From positions 1 to 64,000 of the forward strand of contig CAVTHK010000009.1 of assembly GCA_963734495.1 (NCBI GenBank): 64,000 nt of DNA. Direction: 5' to 3'. A program made the translations under genes and the position numbers. The DNA is from an uncultured Spirochaetota bacterium. Its GTDB lineage: Bacteria > Spirochaetota > Spirochaetia > SZUA-6 > CAVTHK01. The notes beneath the pieces are model-generated. The model worked only from the letters and a program-made list of their open reading frames with translations. It did no database searches and had not been told where the DNA came from. Of this stretch, positions 20,513 to 62,488 are shown in pieces; position 1 is the stretch's first letter; the number at the start of each line of letters is the position of its first letter.

Positions 20513-21577
20513 GCGACGCGATCGCTCGGCGCGGCCGACGGCTGGTTCCTCGAGAACGTCGGCGACGGCGGTCAGCTCAGGCGCATCCCGATCACCATCC
20601 TGCCGTTCCGGATCGGCCGCCGGCACGGGCTCGAGCTGGTGCTGCCGGCCGACTCGGTCTCGAAGGCCCACGCCGAGCTGTACTGGCGCGGCTCCGGCCT
20701 GCGCCTGCGGGACCTCGGCAGCAAGAACGGCACCTTCGTGAACCGCGCGCCCGTCGAGGACGTGCCGCTCAGCGAGGGCGACGTCCTCCACTTCGCGGAC
20801 TTCGAGTTCCGGCTCGGCCGCTCGAGGCCGGAGGAGGCGGAGTCGGCCGGGGTCGGCGACGACAGCACCGCGCCCATCAAGCGGCGCGAGCTGCCGCACG
20901 GCTTCGCCGAGGGCACGCGCGAGCTGCGCGAGCTGCTGCGGGACGGGCTGGTGACGATGGTCTACCAGCCGATCGTGCTGCTGCCGCAGGGCACGGTCGC
21001 CGCCTACGAGGCCCTCGGCCGCGGCCGCCACCCGCAGCTGCCCGAGAGCCCGGCGGAGCTGCTGCGCATCGCCGAGACGATCGGCGCCGAGGCGGAGCTG
21101 AGCCGGCTGTTCCGCAGCAAGGCCGTCGACCTCGTCAAGGACCGCGCCGCGCTGCCCACCGTCTTCCTCAACACGCACCCGATCGAGCTCGCGCGCCCGG
21201 GGCTGATCGAGTCGCTCGAGGAGCTGCGCCGCGCGGCGCCGCAGCTCTCGCTCGCGCTCGAGATCCACGAGAGCGTCCTGACGCGGCCCGCGGTGATCGC
21301 GGAGCTGCGCGCGATGCTGCTGGAGCGCGAGATCGCCCTCGCCTACGACGACTTCGGCGCCGGCCAGGCGCGGCTGCTGGAGCTGGCCGAGGCGCCGCCG
21401 CACTACCTGAAGTTCGACCGCCGCTTCGTGTCCGGCCTCGAGCAGGCCCCGCTGCCGAAGCGGAAGCTGCTCGAGGCGCTGCTGCGCCTCGCGCGCGAGC
21501 TGCACGTGGCGACCGTGGCCGAGGGTGTCGAGACCGCGAGCGAGCCTGATGATATCCACATGAGGATGAGCCTATGA
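20509..21577 (+). CDS. FHA + EAL domain protein, C-terminally truncated at about 21545
   Basis: FRIGR, VSKAHA, DLGSKNGTFVN (FHA); YEAL, DDFGAG, LKFDR, VAEGVET, then unrelated sequence without the final QG motif. Confidence 0.85.
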
Positions 21578-21669
21578 CACCGCCGGGGTCGATCAGGCCG
21601 TACCACAATGACGCAGTCGGCTTGGTTGTCATTCAACCTGGAGCCGCATAACACGTATAAGGCCTTCCC

Positions 21670-22066
21670 TCGTCAAGAGGCGTGAGAAGTCCTGACAACC
21701 GTGTGGCTGCCTCGGGACTGCGCAAGAACACCCGACAAGTTGGTCCGACTTGGTTTCTGCGATGGGTGCAGGAACGCAGCCTGCACCAAACACGTATCGA
21801 GAGTCGCCCGAAGCGCTCTAGAAGACTATTGGTGCCCGACTGCCGTCCGAATCAAAAAAGGGGGTCACCTCGCGGTGCCTCAGTTACTTTTGCGGCTCGG
21901 CGCGGGGCAGACCGCGTATCGGTGTTCCGTTGTCGTGCACAGAGAAAACGGGACCAGGGTGTGCGACCAATCAAATCGTGGGACTTGCCCGAACATAGAG
22001 CGCGCACAGGGATGGCAGTCCAGTTAGGCGTGACAGGTTTGCTGCACACCCTGTCCCTTTCTCTCA
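21670..22066 (-). ncRNA. Putative bridge/seek RNA in the IS 3' non-coding end
   Basis: About 400 nt non-coding end containing CAAATCGT (21972-21979, equals the attC target) and ACACGTAT (21790-21797, equals the IS end), each beside a stem-loop. Confidence 0.65.
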
Positions 22067-23113
22067 TCAACCTCCTTGGTAAAAACGCAGGGGGTCGAAA
22101 GCCTCCTTGTGCTTGAGGATGAAGTAGAGGGTGCGGCCGAGCTTCTGCGCGATGATCGACAGAGCCTTGGCCTTGCCGTACTTGGCGACGAGCTTGTGGT
22201 GATAGAGCTGGGCGGGCTCGTTGTTGCGCAAGAACGTCACGGCCGCCTCGGAGAAGGCCCACTTGAGGTGGACGTTGCCGATCTTTGAGTTGCGCGATCC
22301 GCTCTTCTTTCCTGAAGACTCGCGGGCGCATTTGACCAGCCGCGCGTAGGAGATGAAGTTTCCCGCCGTGGGGAAGCGGCCGATGTCCTGGATCTCGTAG
22401 AGGATCACCAGAGACAACACCTTGCCGATGCCGGGAACGCTGCGGATCAACTGCAGAGCCGCCGGATCGTGATCACGGGCTTGCTCCAGGACCGCGCCCT
22501 CGAGCTTCAGCAGCACTTTGTGGAGAGTGTCGAGGACCTCGCTGTCAGCCTCGACGCTCTTTCTCACCATCGGGTCCTGGAAATGCTCGCCGAGCTCGGC
22601 CCGATTACCACGGTAGTTGATGCGCTTCTCAAAGGCCGCCAGGTTGTACTGCGCGTTGGTGTTCTGGATGTGGGCCAGCAGCTCGCTCTGGTGGTGCATG
22701 AGGTACATGCGGCGGCGAAGCAGATCGCGGGTGGAGCGCATGGCCTGGGGGTAAGCGTAGGCGAGAGGCAGCAGGCCGCCGCGCAGCAGCCCCGCGATCT
22801 TCTGTGAGTCGATCTTGTCGTTCTTGGTCTTGCCGCCGTGAATCGCCTTCATGTACAGCGCGTGACCCAGGACGAACGGGATCGCCTGCTCGGCGCACAC
22901 GTCGGCGATCCAGTACCAGGTGAAGATGCACTCGACCGCGACCACGATGTCCTCCTTGTAGGGCCCGATCGCCTCCACGAGCTGCTGGCGGTCGGTGGGC
23001 AGGTTGCGGTGGAAGACCACCGCCCCCGAAGAATCGATGATGCAGACGTACATGGTCCTTGCGTGCAGATCGATCCCGCAATAGAATCGGTGCTGTCGGC
23101 TGTAGAAGTGCAT
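22067..23113 (-). CDS. IS110 family DEDD recombinase/transposase
   Basis: GIDLH, AVEC, KNDKID, SVPGIG, ESSGK, GNVHLKWAF. Confidence 0.95.
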   Translation of the reverse strand: MHFYSRQHRFYCGIDLHARTMYVCIIDSSGAVVFHRNLPTDRQQLVEAIGPYKEDIVVAVECIFTWYWIADVCAEQAIPFVLGHALYMKAIHGGKTKNDKIDSQKIAGLLRGGLLPLAYAYPQAMRSTRDLLRRRMYLMHHQSELLAHIQNTNAQYNLAAFEKRINYRGNRAELGEHFQDPMVRKSVEADSEVLDTLHKVLLKLEGAVLEQARDHDPAALQLIRSVPGIGKVLSLVILYEIQDIGRFPTAGNFISYARLVKCARESSGKKSGSRNSKIGNVHLKWAFSEAAVTFLRNNEPAQLYHHKLVAKYGKAKALSIIAQKLGRTLYFILKHKEAFDPLRFYQGG

Positions 23114-23195
23114 CGTGGCCTCCTCCTCAAAATCGTTTAGTTGAGCGACGGTAGGTATCCTACCGTACCTCCGAGGGGGAGGCCTTAATAAGTAT

Positions 23196-23305
23196 CAAAT
23201 CGTTGGAGTCGACGCCTTGAGGGCCGACTGGCACTGTCAGCGACGCTTGCACTAAACTGTGAGGGAGGGGAGCCGGCGGCGGCGCGACTCAACTCTATGT
23301 TATGT
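23196..23305 (+). repeat. attC1 (right part; R'' GCATAA lies at 21646-21651)
   Basis: CAAATCGTTGGAGTCG...CGACTCAACTCTATGTTATGT. Confidence 0.85.
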
Positions 23306-23411
23306 TCACCCGAGCCGCGGCGGATGGCGTTTGCGAACACGGCAGGGTAACGGCTGCCTCCGTGGGAAAAGGGACACGGGGGGCTGGCATCGAGGCCGCC
23401 GGTAGTGGACC

Positions 23412-23447
23412 TTGACACTACGTATATGGAGACGCTACATTCATACG
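23412..23447 (+). promoter_or_regulatory. TA cassette promoter/operator
   Basis: TTGACA-18-TACATT with an ACGTAT/ATACGT inverted repeat. Confidence 0.6.
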
Positions 23448-23462
23448 TGAGGAGGGTTTCCA

Positions 23463-23714
23463 GTGACCACAAAGCTCACCCTCAGTGTGGATCGGCAGGT
23501 CGTGCAGAAGGCCAAACGGTACGCTCGCAAGCAGAACAAGAGCCTGTCGCAGCTCGTAACCAACTATCTCAGGCACGTGACGGCCGAGGATTCCGAGGCG
23601 TCTGATATCGACCCGGTTGTTCTCGAAATAGCAGACGAGATACCTCTGGACCGGTTGCCTCGCCACGACGACCCAAAGTACCGCTACCTCAGGGACAAGT
23701 ACCTGCGTGCGTAG
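23463..23714 (+). CDS. RHH-type antitoxin (DUF6364-like)
   Basis: TKLTLSVD..VVQKAKRYA..SLSQLVTNYL; overlaps the PIN toxin gene. Confidence 0.85.
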   Translation: MTTKLTLSVDRQVVQKAKRYARKQNKSLSQLVTNYLRHVTAEDSEASDIDPVVLEIADEIPLDRLPRHDDPKYRYLRDKYLRA

Positions 23715-24135
23715 CGTCTTCTTGGACACCGACGTGATTCTGGATCTCTTTGTTCGCCGCGAACCGCATCATGGTATGGCACTGAAGCTGTTTTCCCGAT
23801 TGCGCAGGTCGAAGGCCAAATGCGTAACCTCCCCTGTCGTGGTAGCCAACCTGTACTACCTGCTGGCGAAGCTACGCAACAAGCCCTACGCCCTGGATCG
23901 CATCCGGCGCTTGCGTAGGCTGGTGGGGATTGCCGCCATGGATGAAACAGTGGTGGAGGCCGCTCTTGCAGCGCCCCACAAGGATTTCGAGGACAGCCTC
24001 CAATACCAGTGCGCCCTCAGGAATGACATCCCAACTCTGATTACCCGTAACGCCGGTGACTTCCCGAAGGACAGAATCACGGTTCTCAGCCCCACCGACT
24101 ACTTGGATATGGTTGCGAGGGAGAAAGACGGGTAA
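23707..24135 (+). CDS. PIN-domain (VapC-like) toxin
   Basis: VFLDTDVILD, DFEDSLQ, ITRNAGDF. Confidence 0.9.
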   Translation: MRSVFLDTDVILDLFVRREPHHGMALKLFSRLRRSKAKCVTSPVVVANLYYLLAKLRNKPYALDRIRRLRRLVGIAAMDETVVEAALAAPHKDFEDSLQYQCALRNDIPTLITRNAGDFPKDRITVLSPTDYLDMVAREKDG

Positions 24136-24252
24136 ACATAAGTATCAAATCGTTAGAGTAGATGCCTGGAGCGCCATCTTCCACGGTCGGCATCGCCGTG
24201 ATAGACTGTGGGCCCGGTAACGGGGGCGGCGCAGCTCAACTCTATGTTGGGC
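24136..24252 (+). repeat. attC2 with a 4-bp GTAT insertion in R''
   Basis: ACATAA-gtat-CAAATCGTT...CAGCTCAACTCTATGTTGGGC. Confidence 0.85.
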
Positions 24253-24391
24253 AGCCTTTGAAATGCCTGCTATGTCGCTGTCATAGGGAAAGCGCGCGCA
24301 CCAATCCCACAACTGCCACGCGTGACGCGTCTGGGCTCCAACGGTGACGCCACACTTGACGGGGATACACGCCATGTACTACACTAGTGTC

Positions 24392-24619
24392 GTGACCAAG
24401 AAGCTTATCCGCCATGGCAACAGCGCAGCCCTCGTTCTCGACAAGGCCCTGCTGGACCTGCTCAAGGTGCAAATCGACACGCCCCTTGAAGTGACTACCG
24501 ACGGGCGCAACATCATCATTTCGCCTCAGGTTAACGAGAAAGCCGAGGCAACCCTTCTGGAGGCTCTCGAGCGTATCAACCAGAGGCACGGATCCGTACT
24601 GGCGAAGCTCGCCAAATAG
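24392..24619 (+). CDS. AbrB/MazE/SpoVT antitoxin (probably leaderless)
   Basis: KKLIRHGNSAALVLDK; TTGACG(24356)-18-TACACT(24380) lies 6 nt before the GTG. Confidence 0.85.
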   Translation: MTKKLIRHGNSAALVLDKALLDLLKVQIDTPLEVTTDGRNIIISPQVNEKAEATLLEALERINQRHGSVLAKLAK

Positions 24620-24620
24620 G

Positions 24621-25022
24621 GTGAGCCGTCGGTTTCTGACAATGGGGGAGGTTCTGCTCGTGCTCCAGGACCAGATCCGCAGGTATGGAGGTACCTACGG
24701 GGTGCGAGACCCGCAGTTGCTGAGCTCCGCATTGGCAATGCCTGCCGCGTCGTTTCAGGGCAAGTACCTCCATAGCGACTTGTACGAGCAGGCTGCCGCC
24801 TACGCATTCCACATATGCCAGAACCACCCGTTCGTGGACGGAAACAAAAGGACCGCGCTGGCATCTGCCCTGGTGTTTCTGTCGCTCAACGGAGTCGACT
24901 TCAACGACCCCAACGAAGACCTTTACAGGCTCATGCTGAAAACAGCTGCCGGCAAGTCAGGCAAGTCCGAGATCTCCGCGGTGTTTCGACGCTTGGCTGC
25001 TTCCAGGCGTGGGAGGAAATGA
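24621..25022 (+). CDS. doc: Doc/Fic family toxin
   Basis: GVRD..LLSSAL, HPFVDGNKRTA. Confidence 0.9.
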   Translation: MSRRFLTMGEVLLVLQDQIRRYGGTYGVRDPQLLSSALAMPAASFQGKYLHSDLYEQAAAYAFHICQNHPFVDGNKRTALASALVFLSLNGVDFNDPNEDLYRLMLKTAAGKSGKSEISAVFRRLAASRRGRK

Positions 25023-25058
25023 CGGGCATCCGACGACGCCGCGTGACAACGGAGGTCT

Positions 25059-25172
25059 GCCCAACAAATCGTTGTCGCTGACGCCTTAACCTCCGACTGG
25101 CACGGGTGGCGAGGCTGGTATAGACTATGGGCTGGGGAGCTTGCGGCGGCGCAGCTCAACTCTATGTTAGGC
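25059..25172 (+). repeat. attC3
   Basis: GCCCAAC-AAATCGTT...CAGCTCAACTCTAT-GTTAGGC. Confidence 0.9.
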
Positions 25173-25460
25173 TGTCCCAGGTCCGTGGCAACCGCGGATG
25201 ACCGCCGGGCATCGGCGTTGCCAACGGCAGTCGGGCTCGTTCCGCAGATTCGCTTGCGGGCGCGACCTCGGTGGCATCGCGACAGGAACGGAGATTCGTA
25301 GGCGATCGGATCAGGTTCCGATCTGGAGATTCGCCTCCCTTACTCCATCCGCTGAGTCCACGGGTGCACGGCTCTGTCACAGTTGTCAGTGCGAAGCACC
25401 CGCCGCTCATTTGACAGAGCCGCCCGGTGTGATGTATTATCATACTATCAGAGGTGCTCT

Positions 25461-25703
25461 ATGCCCAAGTCCAAGATCGCCGTCACCCTCGATCGCAGCA
25501 TTGTCGGAGAGGTTGATAGGCTCGTCAAGCAGCGCGCCTACCCCAACCGTAGCCAGGCTATTGAGGATGCGCTGCGAGAAAAGCTGCTGCGGCTCAAGAG
25601 GAGCCGCTTGGCCAAAGAGGCAGCCAAGCTCGACCCCGCTTTTGAACGCTCGTTGGCCGAACAGGGGCTTTCTCAGGATGCGTCCGAATGGCCCGAATAC
25701 TGA
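25461..25703 (+). CDS. CopG/RHH antitoxin
   Basis: KIAVTLD..EVD..YPNRSQAIEDAL; upstream TTGACA(25411)-18-TATTAT and GAGG RBS. Confidence 0.85.
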   Translation: MPKSKIAVTLDRSIVGEVDRLVKQRAYPNRSQAIEDALREKLLRLKRSRLAKEAAKLDPAFERSLAEQGLSQDASEWPEY

Positions 25704-26026
25704 GGGGTGAGATTCGCTGGGCGGACTTGAACCCCACCCGAGGACATGAACAGGCTGGCACCCGGCCGGTCCTCATCCTGAGCCACGACGTGTTCAACGA
25801 ACGGTCAGGAACGGTCATAGCGATGGCCATGACGAGCCAACCGCAGCGGGCTGGCTTTCCGCTGACTCTTGAGCTCAAGGCTGCCGGGCTACCGAAGAGA
25901 TCCTGGATCAAGATCAGTCAGATTCGCACACTGTCGGCCGAAAGAATAGGCGACAGGATCGGTCGGGCCTCGGCGGAGGAACTCGACCAAGCGATCGAGG
26001 GCCTGAACGAGATCGTCGGAACATAA
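25688..26026 (+). CDS. mazF: PemK/MazF endoribonuclease toxin
   Basis: RGEIRWADLNPTRGHEQAGTRPVLILS, QIRTLS. Confidence 0.92.
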   Translation: MARILRGEIRWADLNPTRGHEQAGTRPVLILSHDVFNERSGTVIAMAMTSQPQRAGFPLTLELKAAGLPKRSWIKISQIRTLSAERIGDRIGRASAEELDQAIEGLNEIVGT

Positions 26027-26134
26027 CAAATCGTTTGAGCTGACGCCTCAAATCTCGCATGGAACGGTCGCCTTAGCTGGTGTACACTGTGGCCTCGGGA
26101 GATTTCGGCGGCGCAGCTCAACTTTATGTTATAC
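26021..26134 (+). repeat. attC4
   Basis: ACATAAC-AAATCGTTTGAGCTG...CAGCTCAACTTTAT-GTTATAC. Confidence 0.9.
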
Positions 26135-26552
26135 GGTTACGCTGCCCCGAGAACTGGCCGGGCGTTGGAGTTCGCGGGGTTCACAGCGATGTACGCGATT
26201 GTCCGCTTCAGGCACCCCCAAAATCTCGGCCAGGGAACGGTGGCCGTCAAGAAACTTGCGCTCACCGACGTCCTGTGCTTGGGCGGCGCGGCGGCTCCGC
26301 CCCACGGAGAGTCGCGAGTGACCATCGGCTGGCTGAGGGCGGGAGCGGAGCCGGGCAGTGCAGCTGACCGAGCGGCCGACACGCTCTCGGTGACGCCCAA
26401 AGACTCGTGGCGGAAGGAGGGGCTGGCGTGTGGTTGGCCAGCAGGCCGGACTTCGATAAGGGCGCGATGGGGCGTAACGGGCGCTGCGCGAGGCCTGATC
26501 TCGACGACCCCCTGGCTCTGGGGATAGGAGACTGATGTGCGGTCACATGGAC

Positions 26553-26663
26553 GCATAACAAATCGTTTGAGTAGACTAAAGTCGAGACTTGCACGGTCGA
26601 TTGAGCACGTATAGACTGTGGACCTGGGAGCTGGCGGCGGCACTACTCAACTCTATGTTAGGT
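26553..26663 (+). repeat. attC5
   Basis: GCATAAC-AAATCGTTTGAGTAG...CTACTCAACTCTAT-GTTAGGT. Confidence 0.9.
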
Positions 26664-26829
26664 AGTGATTGGGCCAAGGTGGGGCAGCGCTGCTGCGTAA
26701 GTGAGGAGCTGTTGGCATCGTGGACACGGGCGCGTTGATTGTTGGTCCCAGCCCCCGGCCAGGCCGCAGAGTGGCGGAAACGGCCCCACGCCGAGTTGTG
26801 AGAACGCTATTGCCTTGACGCGGCAAGGG

Positions 26830-26849
26830 GTATATACTGTCATATATAC
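26830..26849. promoter_or_regulatory. vapBC operator-like inverted repeat
   Basis: GTATATA-N6-TATATAC upstream of vapB; TTGACG at 26815. Confidence 0.6.
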
Positions 26850-26867
26850 TCCGTAGCGAGGTGTGTT

Positions 26868-27101
26868 ATGGACACTGCCAAGCTGTTCAAGAACGGCAGT
26901 AGCCAAGCGGTTCGGCTGCCAAGACAATACGCGATGGCGGGTGACGAGGTCTACGTCAAAAAGGTCAACGGGATCGTCATGCTCATCCCTAAGGACGCCG
27001 ACCCTTGGCAACCGTTTGTCGACAGCCTCACCAAGTTCTCCGGCGATTTCATGGACGAACGTGACCAAGGTGCCTTGGAACAGCGCACCAGTCTGGGGTG
27101 A
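26868..27101 (+). CDS. vapB: VapB antitoxin (AbrB fold)
   Basis: TAKLFKNGSSQAVRLP. Confidence 0.92.
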   Translation: MDTAKLFKNGSSQAVRLPRQYAMAGDEVYVKKVNGIVMLIPKDADPWQPFVDSLTKFSGDFMDERDQGALEQRTSLG

Positions 27102-27502
27102 AGTACCTTCTCGATACCAACATCTGCATCTGCATCATCAAGCGGCAGCCCTCGACTGCCATAGGCCGGATCCGCTCGACGGCACGGGACGATGTTGGTG
27201 TCTCAACGATTACGCTTGCCGAGCTTGAGTACGGGGCGGCGAAAAGCCTCTATCCCGACCGCAATAGACTCGCCCTTCTCGAATTCCTCGTTTCCTTCAA
27301 CATCCTCGACTTCGACCAAGCGGCGTCGAGCCACTACGGTTTGATCCGAGCTGCCCTTGAAGCAAAGGGCAAGCCCATCGGCGCTATGGACATGCTGATC
27401 GCGGCGCAGGCAAGATCAAAAGGCTTGGTGCTGGTCACGAACAACGTGCGCGAGTTCAGACGCGTTGACGGTCTACAGGTCAAGAACTGGGTGGCAGGAT
27501 GA
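27098..27502 (+). CDS. vapC: VapC PIN toxin
   Basis: YLLDTNICI, ELEYG, PIGAMDMLIAAQA, LVTNNVREF. Confidence 0.93.
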   Translation: MKYLLDTNICICIIKRQPSTAIGRIRSTARDDVGVSTITLAELEYGAAKSLYPDRNRLALLEFLVSFNILDFDQAASSHYGLIRAALEAKGKPIGAMDMLIAAQARSKGLVLVTNNVREFRRVDGLQVKNWVAG

Positions 27503-27542
27503 CCACGACCCTCTCAGGAGTTCTTGTCTACAGGCCGGCACT

Positions 27543-27568
27543 ACCTAACGAATTGTTGGAGTAGACGC
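27543..27568 (+). repeat. Truncated attC6 (left arm only)
   Basis: ACCTAAC-GAATTGTTGGAGTAGACGC, with no matching right arm. Confidence 0.6.
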
Positions 27569-27650
27569 TACTGCTACCCGCTCACCGTGATGAACGCCTA
27601 CAGCCGCTACGTGGTGGCAGTGGTGGGGATGCACCGACCTAAACTACCGG
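27566..27650 (+). pseudogene. Fragment of an IS481-like (rve core) transposase
   Basis: RYCYPLTVMNAYSRYVVAV resembles the conserved xYPLTxxDxxSRY segment of rve transposases. Confidence 0.5.
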
Positions 27651-28114
27651 CGGCTGCTGAGCGTCCCGGGGGTCAGGAAGTGCTGGAGTGCCTCCTCCTG
27701 ACCGATATATGCACCTGCCTCCTCGTAGTGGGGCGGGAGAGAGGAAGCACCACGTAACAAGTCGCCGGATCTGGAGCCTCAAACCCCGACCGGCAGCGCC
27801 TATCGCCGGCGCTCATCGCTGCCTTCCAGGAGGTCGAGCGGGATGTCGTTCTGGCGCCGACCTGCGGGGGGACGGGATTGCCTCTTCCATGACCTCATCT
27901 GCCCCGCCAAGCCATTCCTAACAGGTGTTATTTTTGGGGCTACGCTCACTCCGCCCGGTTGTCCGTGTCCGCATTCGGGTCTTGACTCCACGGCTGGCAG
28001 CGCTACACTTGATGGCGGCGAGGCACGGTGGGGTTGAGGGCAGCCCCTGATGGCGCTCGGCGCCTGAGCGTTCGAGGTCGAGCGCGCGGGCGATGTAACA
28101 AAGAGGGTTCGCCT

Positions 28115-29662
28115 GTGAAGCAGGTGGCGATCGGTGTCGCCATCCTCGTATTCGTCGTCCTCACCGCGTTCGCTTACAAGAACCATGTGGCCGCAGTCGA
28201 GGCCGCAGCGCGAATTGCGGATCTCGAGAAATCCCAGGCAGAGCAGCTCGCATCGGTCAAATCCGAGGTGGCCGCGCTCTCGAAGAGCATCGATCGTGTC
28301 GCCGCTTCCATTGCCAACGCCGTGGCCGCGAGCCGCGACGCCTCGCTGCGCGGCCTCGACGGGGTCGAAGGCAGAGTGCAGCGATCTCTCGCGGCGGTGC
28401 AGGGCCGGCTGGCGGAGGTCTCGGATGAGCAGGTGAGGCTGAGCGGGCGGCTTGAAGCCGAACTGGCCGCCGATCAGCCGCCCGCCTTGCCGCAGGCCGC
28501 ACCGATGGCGCCGGCCGCGACCGAGCCCGAAGCCACGCCGCCGGCACCGCAGGCCCGCAGCCTGGAGGCTGCGGCTTCTCTTCTGGTCTCCGCGCCGACT
28601 GCCGAACCAGCGATACCGCGGCCGCCGCAGCGCGCATCTCCGGCCCTGGACCTTCCGATGCAGCGCGCGATGCAGCAGGGGACCGCCTTCTACGAGACGG
28701 GCCGCTACGCGGACGCGCGGGAGCGCTTTGCCGCCGTGCTCGAGAAGCAACCGGAGAACGACGAGGCGCGGCGGATGCACGCCTTCAGTCTCTATCTCGA
28801 GAACCCGGCCGACTCAAGCTCCTACGGCCGGATCGAGGCCGATTTGCAGGCCTTTGCGCGCGGGGGCGATGCCGACCCGGAGGCACTGCGCGTGCTCGGC
28901 CTCGTGGCCATGGAGCAGGCCCGATGGAGCGAGGCCCGCGACCGCTTTGCGCAGGCGATCGCCCTCGAGCCTGGCAACCCGAAGGACGCGAAAAACGCCG
29001 GCCTTTGCTCGCTGCGCCTCGGCGATGCGACCGCGGCCAGGCGCGCTCTCGACGCAGCGTGCGCGCTCGCTCCTGCCGACGCCGAATCGTGGCACTACGC
29101 GGGAATGGCCTGCCTGGAATCGGGCGACAAGGACGCAGCGCTTGCGCGCTTCAGACGCTGCCTCGAGATTGAGGGCGGCTTTGTCGCCGCGCGTGTTCGG
29201 GCGGGGACGCTCCTGGCCGAGCTCGGCCGCACCAGCGATGCGCTGGAGACGCTCGCGCCTGTCCGCCGCCTCGCGGACGCTGCCGCCGCGATCGGCGACT
29301 GCCACGAGCAGCTCGGCGACGCCGGGTCCGCGCGGAGCGCGTGGCTGGAGGCGATCGGCCTGATTCGCGAGAACAGCGCCGCGGACAGGCGGCGTGTCGC
29401 TTCTCTGTACGCCAAACTGGCCGGCTCGGCGCTGAAAAGCGGCGCGCCCGCCCTCTGCATTGATTACTGCAGACAAGGCCTTGCGCGCGACGCAGAGGCT
29501 GCGATGCTTCGCGCGCTGCTCGGCGCGGGGCAGGTTGCGTTGGGGGAGGTGGACGAGGGAAGAAGGCTGCTGCAGGAAATCGCAGACGCTTACCCCGGCA
29601 GCGATGCCGGGACGCTGGCGGCCGCGTCTCTCGCGGGCGCCAGCTCGATCGGGAGGCCGTAG
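28115..29662 (+). CDS. Membrane-anchored coiled-coil/TPR repeat protein
   Basis: N-terminal TM, coiled coil, Pro-rich linker, many TPR-like helices; upstream TTGACT(27982)-16-TACACT. Confidence 0.8.
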   Translation: MKQVAIGVAILVFVVLTAFAYKNHVAAVEAAARIADLEKSQAEQLASVKSEVAALSKSIDRVAASIANAVAASRDASLRGLDGVEGRVQRSLAAVQGRLAEVSDEQVRLSGRLEAELAADQPPALPQAAPMAPAATEPEATPPAPQARSLEAAASLLVSAPTAEPAIPRPPQRASPALDLPMQRAMQQGTAFYETGRYADARERFAAVLEKQPENDEARRMHAFSLYLENPADSSSYGRIEADLQAFARGGDADPEALRVLGLVAMEQARWSEARDRFAQAIALEPGNPKDAKNAGLCSLRLGDATAARRALDAACALAPADAESWHYAGMACLESGDKDAALARFRRCLEIEGGFVAARVRAGTLLAELGRTSDALETLAPVRRLADAAAAIGDCHEQLGDAGSARSAWLEAIGLIRENSAADRRRVASLYAKLAGSALKSGAPALCIDYCRQGLARDAEAAMLRALLGAGQVALGEVDEGRRLLQEIADAYPGSDAGTLAAASLAGASSIGRP

Positions 29663-59871: not shown

Positions 59872-60077
59872 GGGGGCCCGTCCTGCGTCCACGACCTGAC
59901 GAACAGGCTGGGCTGGGCCGCCGAGAAGCTTCCACGTTCAAGGTCCTGCTGTAGCCTCGCCGAACACGTTGTTCGGCCGCCGGGACGTCGGCCCCAACGA
60001 CCTGTGGGGCGCCGTTCGTTCGCAAGGCGGCAGGCTCAGAGACCTCGGACGCACCGTACGTGGTCCCGGGACCGCTT

Positions 60078-60632
60078 CTATCGCTTGACGCATTTCCGCC
60101 AGAAGCGTTTGTCGGCATACGCCTGCAACGGTCGACCGTTCCAGATCTGGGCCTCGACGTAATGGTTGTTGATATCGTAGACACGATACGTGCTGACGAG
60201 CTGAGCGAGCTCCTCGATTGCATATACGGTCGGCCGCTCGGTCCTGGAAAGATAGAGCCTGTGGAGATCGTCCAAAGGGACCTCGTAGAGGCTGTCGGGG
60301 TAGGTAAAGGAAATGTCATCTCGAGAGAACTCGCGCAGAGGAATGTTGATTTTGTACGAGTATTCATTCTCCAGATCGTGAGGGCCAACCGGTGACTCAC
60401 CCAGGATCGCGTAGATCGGATACTCTCGTACCGGGTGCCCGCGTTTGCGAATGAAAAGCTCCCGAAGATGGTGTTCATGGTTCTTGCGGTGATCGAGGTA
60501 GGTTCCATCCCCGCGCCATAGAACGTCATTCTTCAGGATGTCCTGCGCAACTTCATGATCCAGGTCAGTGATCACCTCGAACGGCCTCTGCCCGTCCCTG
60601 AAGTAGTAGGTCAGGTGGTCAGGCTCAGTCAC
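60078..60632 (-). CDS. Conserved hypothetical protein (lower GC, cassette-like)
   Basis: Clean 184-aa ORF with YPIYAILG, SFTYPDS and YVEAQIW motifs. Confidence 0.7.
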   Translation of the reverse strand: MTEPDHLTYYFRDGQRPFEVITDLDHEVAQDILKNDVLWRGDGTYLDHRKNHEHHLRELFIRKRGHPVREYPIYAILGESPVGPHDLENEYSYKINIPLREFSRDDISFTYPDSLYEVPLDDLHRLYLSRTERPTVYAIEELAQLVSTYRVYDINNHYVEAQIWNGRPLQAYADKRFWRKCVKR

Positions 60633-61184
60633 AGGAGCGCCTCACGCTGCGGGCACGCAACCCGATAGTGTCTGCCCTGAGAGACCGAAGCCCCCCGGAG
60701 TTGCCGTAACGCATATCATCCGCCGTGAGGGGCGCGACAATACGACAGAAGCGGGCGCGGGCATATGAACAGCGTAATCCATGCCCCCATTGGATGTCGA
60801 CAGCGAGAAGATCATCGCCGCGGAGCTGGTCGGATCAGAAAGAAACGCCGCACGAGGCCTGCCGCCGCCCCTGACCAAGGTGGGAGTCAGCGCTGTAGTG
60901 GCCGTTCCAGTCGTATCTGATGTCCGAACAACCCTTGGGGGTCCCTCACGGACTCGAGCCGGCCCTGTCTATCGGGACGCATCGCTAGGCTGTCATCTCA
61001 AGTGACGCCCAATTCGAGGAAACGCGCACTTCCGACCCTCGCCCGCTGCCATCCGCAATCCCTTTGCGGGCGAGCGCTTGCCTCAGCCCCATAGAGCCGT
61101 TCGGCCTTCGCTGGGACAGCTCGGCACGAAGTTGCATCGTGCCCGGCGCTACCAGTCGCGATCACGGCTGAATGCCGAGGCACC

Positions 61185-61589
61185 CTATTGCTTGCTCTTG
61201 GGTACCCGAGTCTTCCTGGCCTTCGCGGGCTTCGGCGGCAGTGATGACGCGTAGGCCAGGCTTTTCGAAATCCATCGCTCGAGCTGAGCCCGGGATTCCA
61301 GTAGCAGGTCGGGAACGACAACGTACTCCCGCATTGGCCTGCCGGGCATGGGCTCAAACAGTTTGGCGCCGTACTGATTCATGAATGCCGGACGGTCGGA
61401 ATCTGACAACCGCAGCATCATGGTGCTTTGGAACAGGCCGCAGAACATCTGGTCGGCAACGAAAGCCACCGGATATCCAAACATCTTTCGTATCTCGGCG
61501 CCAGGAATCTGCGCCAACATCTTGTCGAACAGCGCCACCAACTGTTCCGGCGCCTTGGTCCATTTCGGCATCTCGCGCTTTGCCGCCAT
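61185..61589 (-). CDS. TfoX/Sxy N-terminal domain protein
   Basis: RKMFGYP..MFCGLF..FEPMPGRPMREYV..LPPK. Confidence 0.85.
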   Translation of the reverse strand: MAAKREMPKWTKAPEQLVALFDKMLAQIPGAEIRKMFGYPVAFVADQMFCGLFQSTMMLRLSDSDRPAFMNQYGAKLFEPMPGRPMREYVVVPDLLLESRAQLERWISKSLAYASSLPPKPAKARKTRVPKSKQ

Positions 61590-61650
61590 TCGCCCATGCC
61601 TCCCTGCTCCCGACCCGCCGCAGACATGCAGCACGGCCGTTGTCAGACGG

Positions 61651-62313
61651 TCATTTGGTGGGGAACACCTTCCAGACGCCCTCGCTCACAACGTCTACTT
61701 TGTCATCAGCAATCCGCAGGGCCGATTGATCATCCAACGCGTAGACACTTTCCGTCATGCCTCTCGAGGCTTCCTCGACCATGGTTTCCTTGAGGTTGGG
61801 GAAGTGAGGGTTGTTGAGATGGGGCAGAAGGTAGAAGTCGATATAGCCCAGCCCGTTGATGTCTGCCGTTCTGTCCAGGTCATCCTGGTACAAGAGATGA
61901 GAGAGCCTGAGGCCAAGCTTCTTGCCGACCACCATGCTCCCGGCGCTCATTCCGACGTATACCCTGTCTCGCAGCAGATTGGGCAGTCTTGTCGTGAGGC
62001 CCGACTTACCCGTCCACTCCAGAAGATGGAAGCGGTTGCCGCCTCCGAAGTACAAGACATCGGCCGGCTCCATTCTCGCGAGCCACTCGTTCCTATGGAG
62101 CGCTGAGATGTCAGCTATGTCGATCGACTTGAAGCCCAGTCTCTTGAGACGCATTAAATCGTCGATCAACCAGCCTTTGTCGCCCTGCTGTGCATTTGAC
62201 GCAGTGGGAACAAACACTAACGACGTGGCTTCAGGCTTCTTGCCCACAAGATCAAAGAGCGCATGGGCGATGGACGTGTTCGTTACGCCGCCAGACGTCA
62301 GCAGAAATTTCAC
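61651..62313 (-). CDS. Peptidase E (S51) family protein
   Basis: LLTSGG, FVPTAS, GGGN, GMSAGS, PHLN. Confidence 0.88.
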   Translation of the reverse strand: MKFLLTSGGVTNTSIAHALFDLVGKKPEATSLVFVPTASNAQQGDKGWLIDDLMRLKRLGFKSIDIADISALHRNEWLARMEPADVLYFGGGNRFHLLEWTGKSGLTTRLPNLLRDRVYVGMSAGSMVVGKKLGLRLSHLLYQDDLDRTADINGLGYIDFYLLPHLNNPHFPNLKETMVEEASRGMTESVYALDDQSALRIADDKVDVVSEGVWKVFPTK

Positions 62314-62377
62314 GTCTCAATCTAGCTACTGGAAGGCGCCGCGGTCAACGAGAAAGGAGGGGGCGACGTTCCGGGCC

Positions 62378-62488
62378 GCTCGACATAGAGTTGATGCTGG
62401 CACCGCCGAGTAGCTGCCTGGCCCACAGTCTATACCAGCCTCCCCCGTGCCAGTCGGCCCTTGAGTCTACTGCATCGACTTGTCAGCC
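62378..62488 (-). repeat. attC7, same family as attC1-5, minus strand
   Basis: GGCTGAC-AAGTCGATGCAGTAG...CCGACTGGCAC..CTGGTATAGACTGTGG...CAACTCTAT-GTCGAGC. Confidence 0.8.

Follow-up and report, generated by a model that had tools for sequence, protein, structure and literature searches.

The attC recombination sites of sedentary chromosomal integrons and of clusters of attC sites lacking integrases (CALINs), for example the Vibrio cholerae repeats, have inverse cores and paired arms with bulged bases, measure about 105-115 nucleotides (nt), are similar within a lineage and stand in tandem arrays of one orientation at the 3' ends of gene cassettes. Toxin-antitoxin cassettes with promoters of their own occur in these systems, as do integrase-less clusters in genomes whose integrases lie elsewhere. 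The classes of integrons and CALINs recognised by IntegronFinder are set out in the available text of Cury et al. 2016 (PMC4889954). Here we analyse a 64,000-nt stretch of contig C9 (the window) from an uncultured Spirochaetota bacterium, where five repeats at 23.2-26.7 kb share all of these features. They differ from those chromosomal attCs in their centre, which lacks the extended imperfect stem, predictions giving no consistent pairing there, and contains two short sequence blocks conserved like the arms. The system also differs in its Spirochaetota host and in integron integrases (IntI) with about 120-150 extra N-terminal residues. A lineage-private attC subfamily in a CALIN with self-expressing toxin-antitoxin cassettes is a known kind of system in a little-studied host; the role of the two central blocks is the main subject of what follows.

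The described determinants of attC sites are the R and L boxes, extrahelical bases, an unpaired central spacer and a variable terminal structure (PMC5027507, in the sections available). A preliminary description of the present sequence had proposed a sigma-70 promoter in each attC, and the closest precedent for such an element is a hybrid promoter in Vibrio sp. DAT722. There, the -35 lies within an attC and acts together with a -10 supplied by the cassette that follows, and transcript measurements supported the promoter's activity (Michael and Labbate 2010, PMC2945992, in excerpt). As in that case, the candidate -35 here is located within the attC, appears in several of these sites and is aimed at the next cassette. 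By the same excerpt the DAT722 -10 belongs to one downstream cassette and the promoter is unique to one junction, whereas both candidate elements here are contained entirely in the attC, move with the upstream cassette and are predicted from sequence. Start sites have also been mapped inside the attC of the gene-less cassette F2 of Vibrionaceae superintegrons (PMC11014356). Promoter-bearing cassettes more widely include gene-less ones from the same Vibrionaceae superintegrons and cassettes without open reading frames (ORFs) in oral Treponema (PMC6557892). In the passages available on these systems, array expression is independent of the integron promoter Pc, as we predict for four toxin-antitoxin cassettes of the window, and the promoter lies in the cassette body, not in the conserved part of the recombination site.

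Mobile elements offer a further comparison. Group IIC-attC introns, which carry outward promoters (PMC3001079), and insertion sequences (ISs) of the IS1111-attC kind are mobile elements that target attC sites and can alter expression of the next cassette. In this genome, an IS110-family IS occupies one fixed position in five attCs. Unlike in those cases, the candidate promoter here is part of the attC and not of the inserted element. In the main texts of Creative Commons PMC papers and bioRxiv preprints we found no attC family described as holding an entire conserved promoter within its sites. Such a promoter, if real, would be new, although the evidence leans against it. In large chromosomal integrons the expression of cassettes that lie far from Pc or in integrase-less clusters is a standing question, and in this lineage it would be settled by a promoter within the recombination site: arrays would no longer be mostly silent stores, and integrase-less clusters would stay expressed without Pc.

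The attC sites and their genomic setting

The genome analysed comprises 18 contigs (5.38 Mb, 83% complete). The five repeats of the window are 110-115 nt long, all on the + strand, and their region has a G+C content of 58-61% compared with about 70% for the window. The two ends of the five window copies and of 25 strong genomic copies bear inverse cores, RYYYAAC for R'' and GTTRRRY for R'; in the window the 5' ends read CATAAC or CCCAAC and the 3' ends GTTATGT, GTTAGGC or GTTGGGC. When the 25 copies were aligned, the arms formed 20 pairs with 89% of cells paired, against 25-54% in slid controls. Both-side changes are seen at six arm pairs in all, and compensatory changes chiefly at columns 19/99 (7/25 sequences) and 20/98 (9/25). 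In single-strand folds of most of these copies, single bulged bases follow GTTG and AGTAG/AGCTG, and an unpaired spacer of 4-5 nt recurs between the R and L boxes.

Across the genome, attC sites lie at cassette 3' ends in same-orientation tandem arrays on contigs C1, C18, C13 and C9. Ten or eleven copies stand on C1 beside an integron integrase gene and two on C11 beside a second; the remainder are found at the start of C18, in a second integrase-less cluster on C13 and in the window. Both IntI genes (C1:17065-18003 and C11:2484-3419) exceed the TIGR02249 cut-off, read divergently from the adjoining arrays and have their closest relatives (about 54% identity) in metagenome-assembled genomes (MAGs) of Spirochaetota. 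Taken together, the inverse cores, the paired arms with compensatory changes and the arrays beside IntI identify the five repeats, at the level of sequence, as attC sites of integron gene cassettes. On C9 there is no TIGR02249 match above the cut-off, such matches occurring only on C1 and C11, and the contig has only weak partial tyrosine-recombinase matches at 167-169 kb. We classify the window set as a CALIN, adjoining an IS110-family element. The two integrases are long (439 and 476 amino acids; L005 1135-2454 and L006 1048-2478), the 120-150 or so N-terminal residues that precede their SAM-like domain have no Pfam match, and relatives of comparable length come from many MAGs, which belong to several phyla.

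Trained on the 25 strong copies, a covariance model detects 30 in the genome. In the window it matches attC1 (23191-23305), whose R'' half has been displaced by the IS, at 108 bits; attC2 (24141-24252), with a 4-nt GTAT insertion in R'', at 87 bits; and attC3 (25060-25172), attC4 (26022-26134) and attC5 (26554-26663) at 115, 110 and 97 bits. A sixth attC remnant on the + strand (27544-27593, CTAACGAATTGTTGGAGTAGACG) consists of the 5' arm only, closes the last cassette and is matched weakly (11 bits, E 1.2).

Two conserved blocks in the attC centre

The preliminary description placed a pair of hexamers at a kept distance in the centre of each site. Direct reading finds all five pairs at the coordinates claimed, on the + strand only: TGGCAC (23229-23234) and TAAACT (23253-23258) separated by 18 nt in attC1 and, with 17 nt between them, TTCCAC (24179-24184) and TAGACT (24202-24207, directly preceded by TGA) in attC2, TGGCAC (25098-25103) and TAGACT (25121-25126) in attC3, TGGAAC (26060-26065) and TACACT (26083-26088) in attC4, and TTGCAC (26589-26594) and TAGACT (26612-26617) in attC5. 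The pattern T[GT][GC][CA]AC-N17-18-TAnACT occurs five times in the window, only on the + strand, against 0.13 expected from block shuffles; genome-wide there are 22 matches, 17 of them within attC hits. The site called attC7, to which TAGACT and a 14-nt spacer had been ascribed, is indeed such a copy: it lies at 62378-62487 on the - strand, matches at 58 bits and is decayed, with degenerate arms and both blocks kept, TGGCAC first.

The conserved sequence is longer than the hexamers originally drawn. In the 25 copies, the conserved central columns fall into two blocks, CTGGCACGG at columns 40-48 and TA-n-ACTG at columns 65-71, which stand 15 nt apart. In the window, blocks 1 and 2 read CTGGCACTG (23228-23236) and TAAACTG (23253-23259) in attC1, CTTCCACGG (24178-24186) and TAGACTG (24202-24208) in attC2, CTGGCACGG (25097-25105) and TAGACTA (25121-25127) in attC3, ATGGAACGG (26059-26067) and TACACTG (26083-26089) in attC4, and CTTGCACGG (26588-26596) and TAGACTG (26612-26618) in attC5. 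On a tree of the 25 copies, block 1 has undergone 1.44 changes per column and block 2 (TA.ACTG) 1.33, compared with 1.64 in the arms and 5.79 in the rest of the centre, which thus evolves about fourfold faster than the blocks. The third position of the second hexamer, inside block 2, is the most variable column of the whole alignment, with nine changes. Of 20,000 column permutations, 19,991 give less clustering than is seen in the 9-column block. Although two main subtypes account for most copies, both blocks persist in copies with nearly unrelated centres (those starting at 24141, 26022 and 26554 in the window, C1:11932 and C13:211916). The two blocks are therefore real and evolve as slowly as the recombination arms, and the earlier observation that hexamers and spacing are kept while the spacer drifts stands, in that alignment, permutations and tree agree on two central blocks constrained at fixed spacing. 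Its premise of poorly conserved attC centres applies to mobile integrons and not within one chromosomal integron lineage, where attCs are homogeneous (PMC13638679, as far as the text available goes).

The conserved bases might have been fully explained by bottom-strand hairpin pairing, a check that the preliminary description itself proposed, and they are not. An RNAalifold consensus fold of the 25 copies contains the arms only and no central structure, and in single-strand DNA folds of both strands the centre differs in almost every copy, with no common structure. The probability of being unpaired is 0.47-0.67 in the blocks, 0.51-0.56 in the rest of the centre and 0.21 in the arms. As pairing is no stronger in the blocks than around them and the centre has no common fold, it does not explain their conservation. 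Two mini-hairpins drawn by hand have weak support: 72% of their cells are paired, covariation is weak, and 68 of 500 shuffles reach their covariation score. No Rfam family matches positions 21000-29000, where the only hit is a chance one to a lncRNA (E 0.47).

Possible roles of the blocks

Conservation like that of the integrase-binding arms, for which pairing does not account, suggests a sequence-specific determinant in the part of attC that is usually held free to vary. The constraint is probably related to recombination, and our preferred explanation, put forward tentatively, is that these are lineage-specific attC sites in a CALIN whose central blocks serve the recombination site itself rather than transcription. 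CTGGCACGG and TA-n-ACTG may influence the folding or melting of the long, poorly self-complementary centre, or they may alternatively affect handling by the cognate integrases or an accessory protein. The window cassettes would then be expressed from the near-consensus promoters that the toxin-antitoxin cassettes appear to carry themselves.

A number of observations weigh against this explanation. We know of no published attC determinant that consists of a sequence-specific central motif. Folds of the 25 copies yielded no consistent pairing partner for the blocks, and no pair of central columns has a mean pair probability above 0.25 on either strand when these copies are averaged. Neither attI region contains the blocks: TAnACTG is absent from both, and the CTGGCAC-like words found there look incidental. 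The candidate promoter points into the next cassette, and TA-n-..T keeps exactly the -12, -11 and -7 positions while freeing the third. Central TAnnnT occurs on the sense strand in 27 of the 28 own attC copies used for such counts and for promoter scoring, against 8/28 on the other strand. Of 22 delimited cassettes in the genome (four contain the IS and two have an antisense longest frame), 17 lack a sense promoter of their own scoring at least 9/12 and five possess one, so that an attC promoter would not be redundant everywhere. Finally, the slow evolution of the blocks could be overstated, as the 25 aligned copies are all homologous and fall into few lineages within a single young family, with an effective sequence number of 2.57 by Infernal.

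The alternative that survives best, which we nevertheless regard as unlikely, is that of the preliminary description. It holds that the blocks are a weak sigma-70 promoter (-35 cTGGCA, 18-nt spacer, -10 TAnACT) in each attC, transcribing the next cassette, and that cassette expression would depend neither on Pc nor on array position. Slightly more doubtful still is its fuller form, in which the unpaired centre of each attC would be a portable weak sigma-70 promoter, its -10 TA-n-ACT kept for function, that switches on the downstream neighbour. Spacing and sense orientation are fixed in all five window copies and in about three quarters of the 28 genomic ones, pairing leaves the blocks unexplained, most cassettes of the genome (the 17/22 above) have no recognisable promoter, and the -35 of DAT722 and the start sites in the attC of F2 provide partial precedents (PMC2945992 and PMC11014356, in excerpt). 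The first, second and sixth bases of the -10 hexamer (T, A and T) are each present in 24/25 copies, which read TAnACT, TATGCT or TACAAT. This part of the proposal, with the third position free, was borne out; the overall match to sigma-70 is weak.

Candidate promoters were scored against the textbook sigma-70 consensus hexamers (-35 TTGACA), with a scan cut-off of 9/12. The first hexamers as originally drawn match TTGACA at only 2-3 of six positions, and CTGGCA reaches 4/6 only if an 18-nt spacer is taken, which leaves the -35 claim without a good match. The extended -10 (TGn) is present in attC2 as described, in only one of the five window sites. Best totals are 6-8/12 for the window copies and 6-9/12 across the genome, where three copies score 6, ten score 7, ten score 8 and five score 9. 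The five with 9/12 have TATACT, a point in favour of a promoter. Scores of at least 8/12 are reached by 15/28 own copies and of at least 9/12 by 5/28, compared with 12.9% and 2.9% of composition-matched shuffles; among 232 attCs of relatives, 14 have a match of at least 8/12, a share that does not exceed background. None of the five window attCs passes the scan, whereas promoters of the four toxin-antitoxin cassettes do (9-11/12). Four of the five cassettes that the attCs were supposed to drive own a near-consensus promoter, which speaks against attC promoters driving the downstream cassettes of the window.

The pattern of constraint is also broader than a promoter would call for. Selection for a -10 is expected to leave the middle positions free or to shift them toward A. 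The constrained blocks span nine and seven columns, wider than sigma-70 reads, and positions that its recognition does not require are equally constrained: C at -8 (23/25 copies), the G that follows the hexamer (24/25) and CACGG (22-25/25). One own copy reads TACATG, and the decayed attC7 keeps both blocks despite its 14-nt spacer. We therefore consider the blocks less likely to be a dedicated promoter than to be determinants of the recombination site.

A somewhat less probable alternative is that the blocks have no function of their own and are the unchanged remainder of a young, recently amplified attC family, possibly homogenised by recombination between copies. The effective sequence number, the two subtypes that hold most copies and the restriction of the type to one genome all fit such an origin. 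Divergent copies with almost unrelated centres nevertheless keep both blocks, the fourfold difference in rate on the tree sets blocks apart from the remaining centre, the fastest column of the alignment falls inside block 2, and only 9 of 20,000 permutations match the observed clustering. These results make a mere remnant improbable.

Very improbable, finally, is an element acting in the top strand or in RNA, in which CACGG at the end of block 1 pairs with CTGTG at the end of block 2 through a G-T or G-U wobble available in the sense strand only, so that read-through transcripts or the non-recombining strand would form a hairpin. Over the five column pairs, 84.7% of cells are paired (17-52% when slid), and 22/25 copies have the wobble at columns 47/70, where the recombining bottom strand would have C mismatched with A. 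The columns hardly vary, however, and so show no covariation, the helix closes a 20-nt loop, no central pair attains a mean probability of 0.25, CTGG and TA are left unaccounted for and there is no Rfam match.

Sigma-54 was considered as well and rejected for this genome. The sigma-54 consensus is TGGCAC-N5-TTGCW, with the -24 GG and the -12 GC exactly ten bases apart. CTGGCACGG matches the -24 element exactly and the genome encodes rpoN, but in 27/28 copies the -12 GC is misplaced; TGG-N9-TGC is found in one of the 28 only, an outlier of another subtype. A search of Creative Commons PMC papers and bioRxiv for links between attC and sigma-54 or RpoN returned nothing relevant. Of 260 distinct attCs, 18, most of them from a single subfamily of related genomes, have correctly spaced TGG-N9-TGC, sense-oriented and at one fixed central position. 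This GG-N10-GC subfamily reads CTGGAACGG-N4-TGCAG or CTGGATCGG-N4-TGCA (for example at L123-L124 in G055, L131 in G082 and L095 in G009, and in the genome analysed at L004 4106-4219), and its sigma-54-like spacing could be structural.

Relatives, cassettes and neighbouring elements

A covariance-model search of 101 related genomes, from which 150 hits were aligned and 260 distinct attCs gathered, found at least one member of an attC superfamily in 35 of them. The attCs of these relatives share their arms, whereas the centres fall into unrelated subfamilies, and 142 mutually diverse representatives have almost no positional conservation between the arms. A deep conservation of the blocks was rejected on this basis, centres differing by subfamily in the 101 relatives, in the 260 distinct attCs and in at least 98 metagenomic attCs chosen by their 3' arm alone. 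Metagenomes yielded at least four or so members of the subfamily of the present genome. No excess of TAnnnT on the sense strand is found in the attC centres of relatives either (98/232 on the top strand, 86/232 on the bottom, 127 expected from shuffles).

The preliminary description had spoken of a family, and the block pair does not extend beyond one genome. With one mismatch allowed, the two-block pattern has 19 matches here and none in a genome of the same genus. Ninety further genomes of the order have 0-3 apiece, similar to the 0-2 per genome obtained with a reversed pattern as control. Among the matches listed, the three closest copies outside this genome include two, at a locus of the same genus (L096) and a metagenomic locus (L221), that keep block 1 and read TGGAAT or TGGAGT, without the -11 A. 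By these searches the attC type is private to this lineage, while its R/L arms are common to a superfamily present in about a third of related genomes.

The superfamily documented here in relatives is large, and some of them carry dozens of its cassettes. Its arrays can be very large, with at least 75 distinct attCs in one (L125-L128, contig 6 of G016, 1-68 kb) and at least 60 in another (L132-L133, G009). On contig 4 of G045, an unrelated genome of the order, an identical 31-nt match to the two-block pattern (CTGGCGCGG...TTACACTG) recurs three times, 7.6 kb apart (L264); it is some other repeat.

The cluster of the window starts directly after GC-rich genes for GGDEF/EAL-type signalling proteins. 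The 114 nt 5' of the IS (21535-21648) match a cassette end on C1 (6346-6233 region), and the cluster therefore opens with a cassette remnant. The IS itself, of the IS110 family, occupies 21649-23190 on the - strand, with boundaries that are approximate, being taken from blastn ends and a reading of the sequence; its transposase ORF (22067-23113) matches Pfam DEDD_Tnp_IS110 and Transposase_20. It splits attC1, parting the R'' box GCATAAC (21642-21648) from the rest of the site. An IS of about 1.55 kb is inserted at the identical point, between CATAAC and AAATCG, in five attCs, the other four being on C1 (L001 2501-4583, 4693-7044, 7155-9392 and 12833-15465), and the copies are 95-99% identical. 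This fixed position in attCs is behaviour that we take to be like that of the attC-targeting IS1111 group. Two IS-free attCs (attC2 at 24141-24150 and a C13 copy, L004 3017-3026) read CATAAGTATCAAATCG in place of CATAACAAATCG. Their extra GTAT is identical to the IS-proximal junction of occupied sites, which suggests a scar left by a lost IS or else a target variant that the element prefers.

Four of the five cassettes downstream of the window attCs contain type II toxin-antitoxin pairs by Pfam, and each of the four has a near-consensus promoter-like site (9-11/12) between the attC and the antitoxin gene. In the region as a whole, both strands counted, there are seven such sites against 1.1 expected. 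All four cassette sites are on the + strand. TTGACA-18-TACATT (23412-23441, 10/12) lies 5' of genes for a DUF6364 antitoxin-like protein (23463-23714) and a PIN toxin (23707-24135). TTGACG-18-TACACT (24356-24385, 9/12) is given as 5' of a MazE-like gene, listed at 24344-24619, which is followed by a Fic/Doc toxin gene (24621-25022). TTGACA-18-TATTAT (25411-25440, 11/12) stands 5' of the genes for a ribbon-helix-helix antitoxin and for a PemK/MazF toxin (the latter at 25688-26026), and TTGCCT-17-TATACT (26810-26838, 9/12) 5' of those encoding an AbrB/MazE-type antitoxin (26868-27101) and a PIN toxin (27098-27502). The fifth is a short + strand cassette (26135-26553, 422 nt, GC 0.68) whose longest sense frame has no Pfam match and in which the sigma-70 scan finds no site of at least 9/12. 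The window array would be expressed, if at all, from the toxin-antitoxin cassettes' own promoters, a known pattern.

A second patch of low GC lies on the - strand at 59894-62487. There, a weak attC-like match (59894-60009, 27 bits) and the decayed attC7 flank two or three small genes, and the patch is probably a decaying cassette pair.

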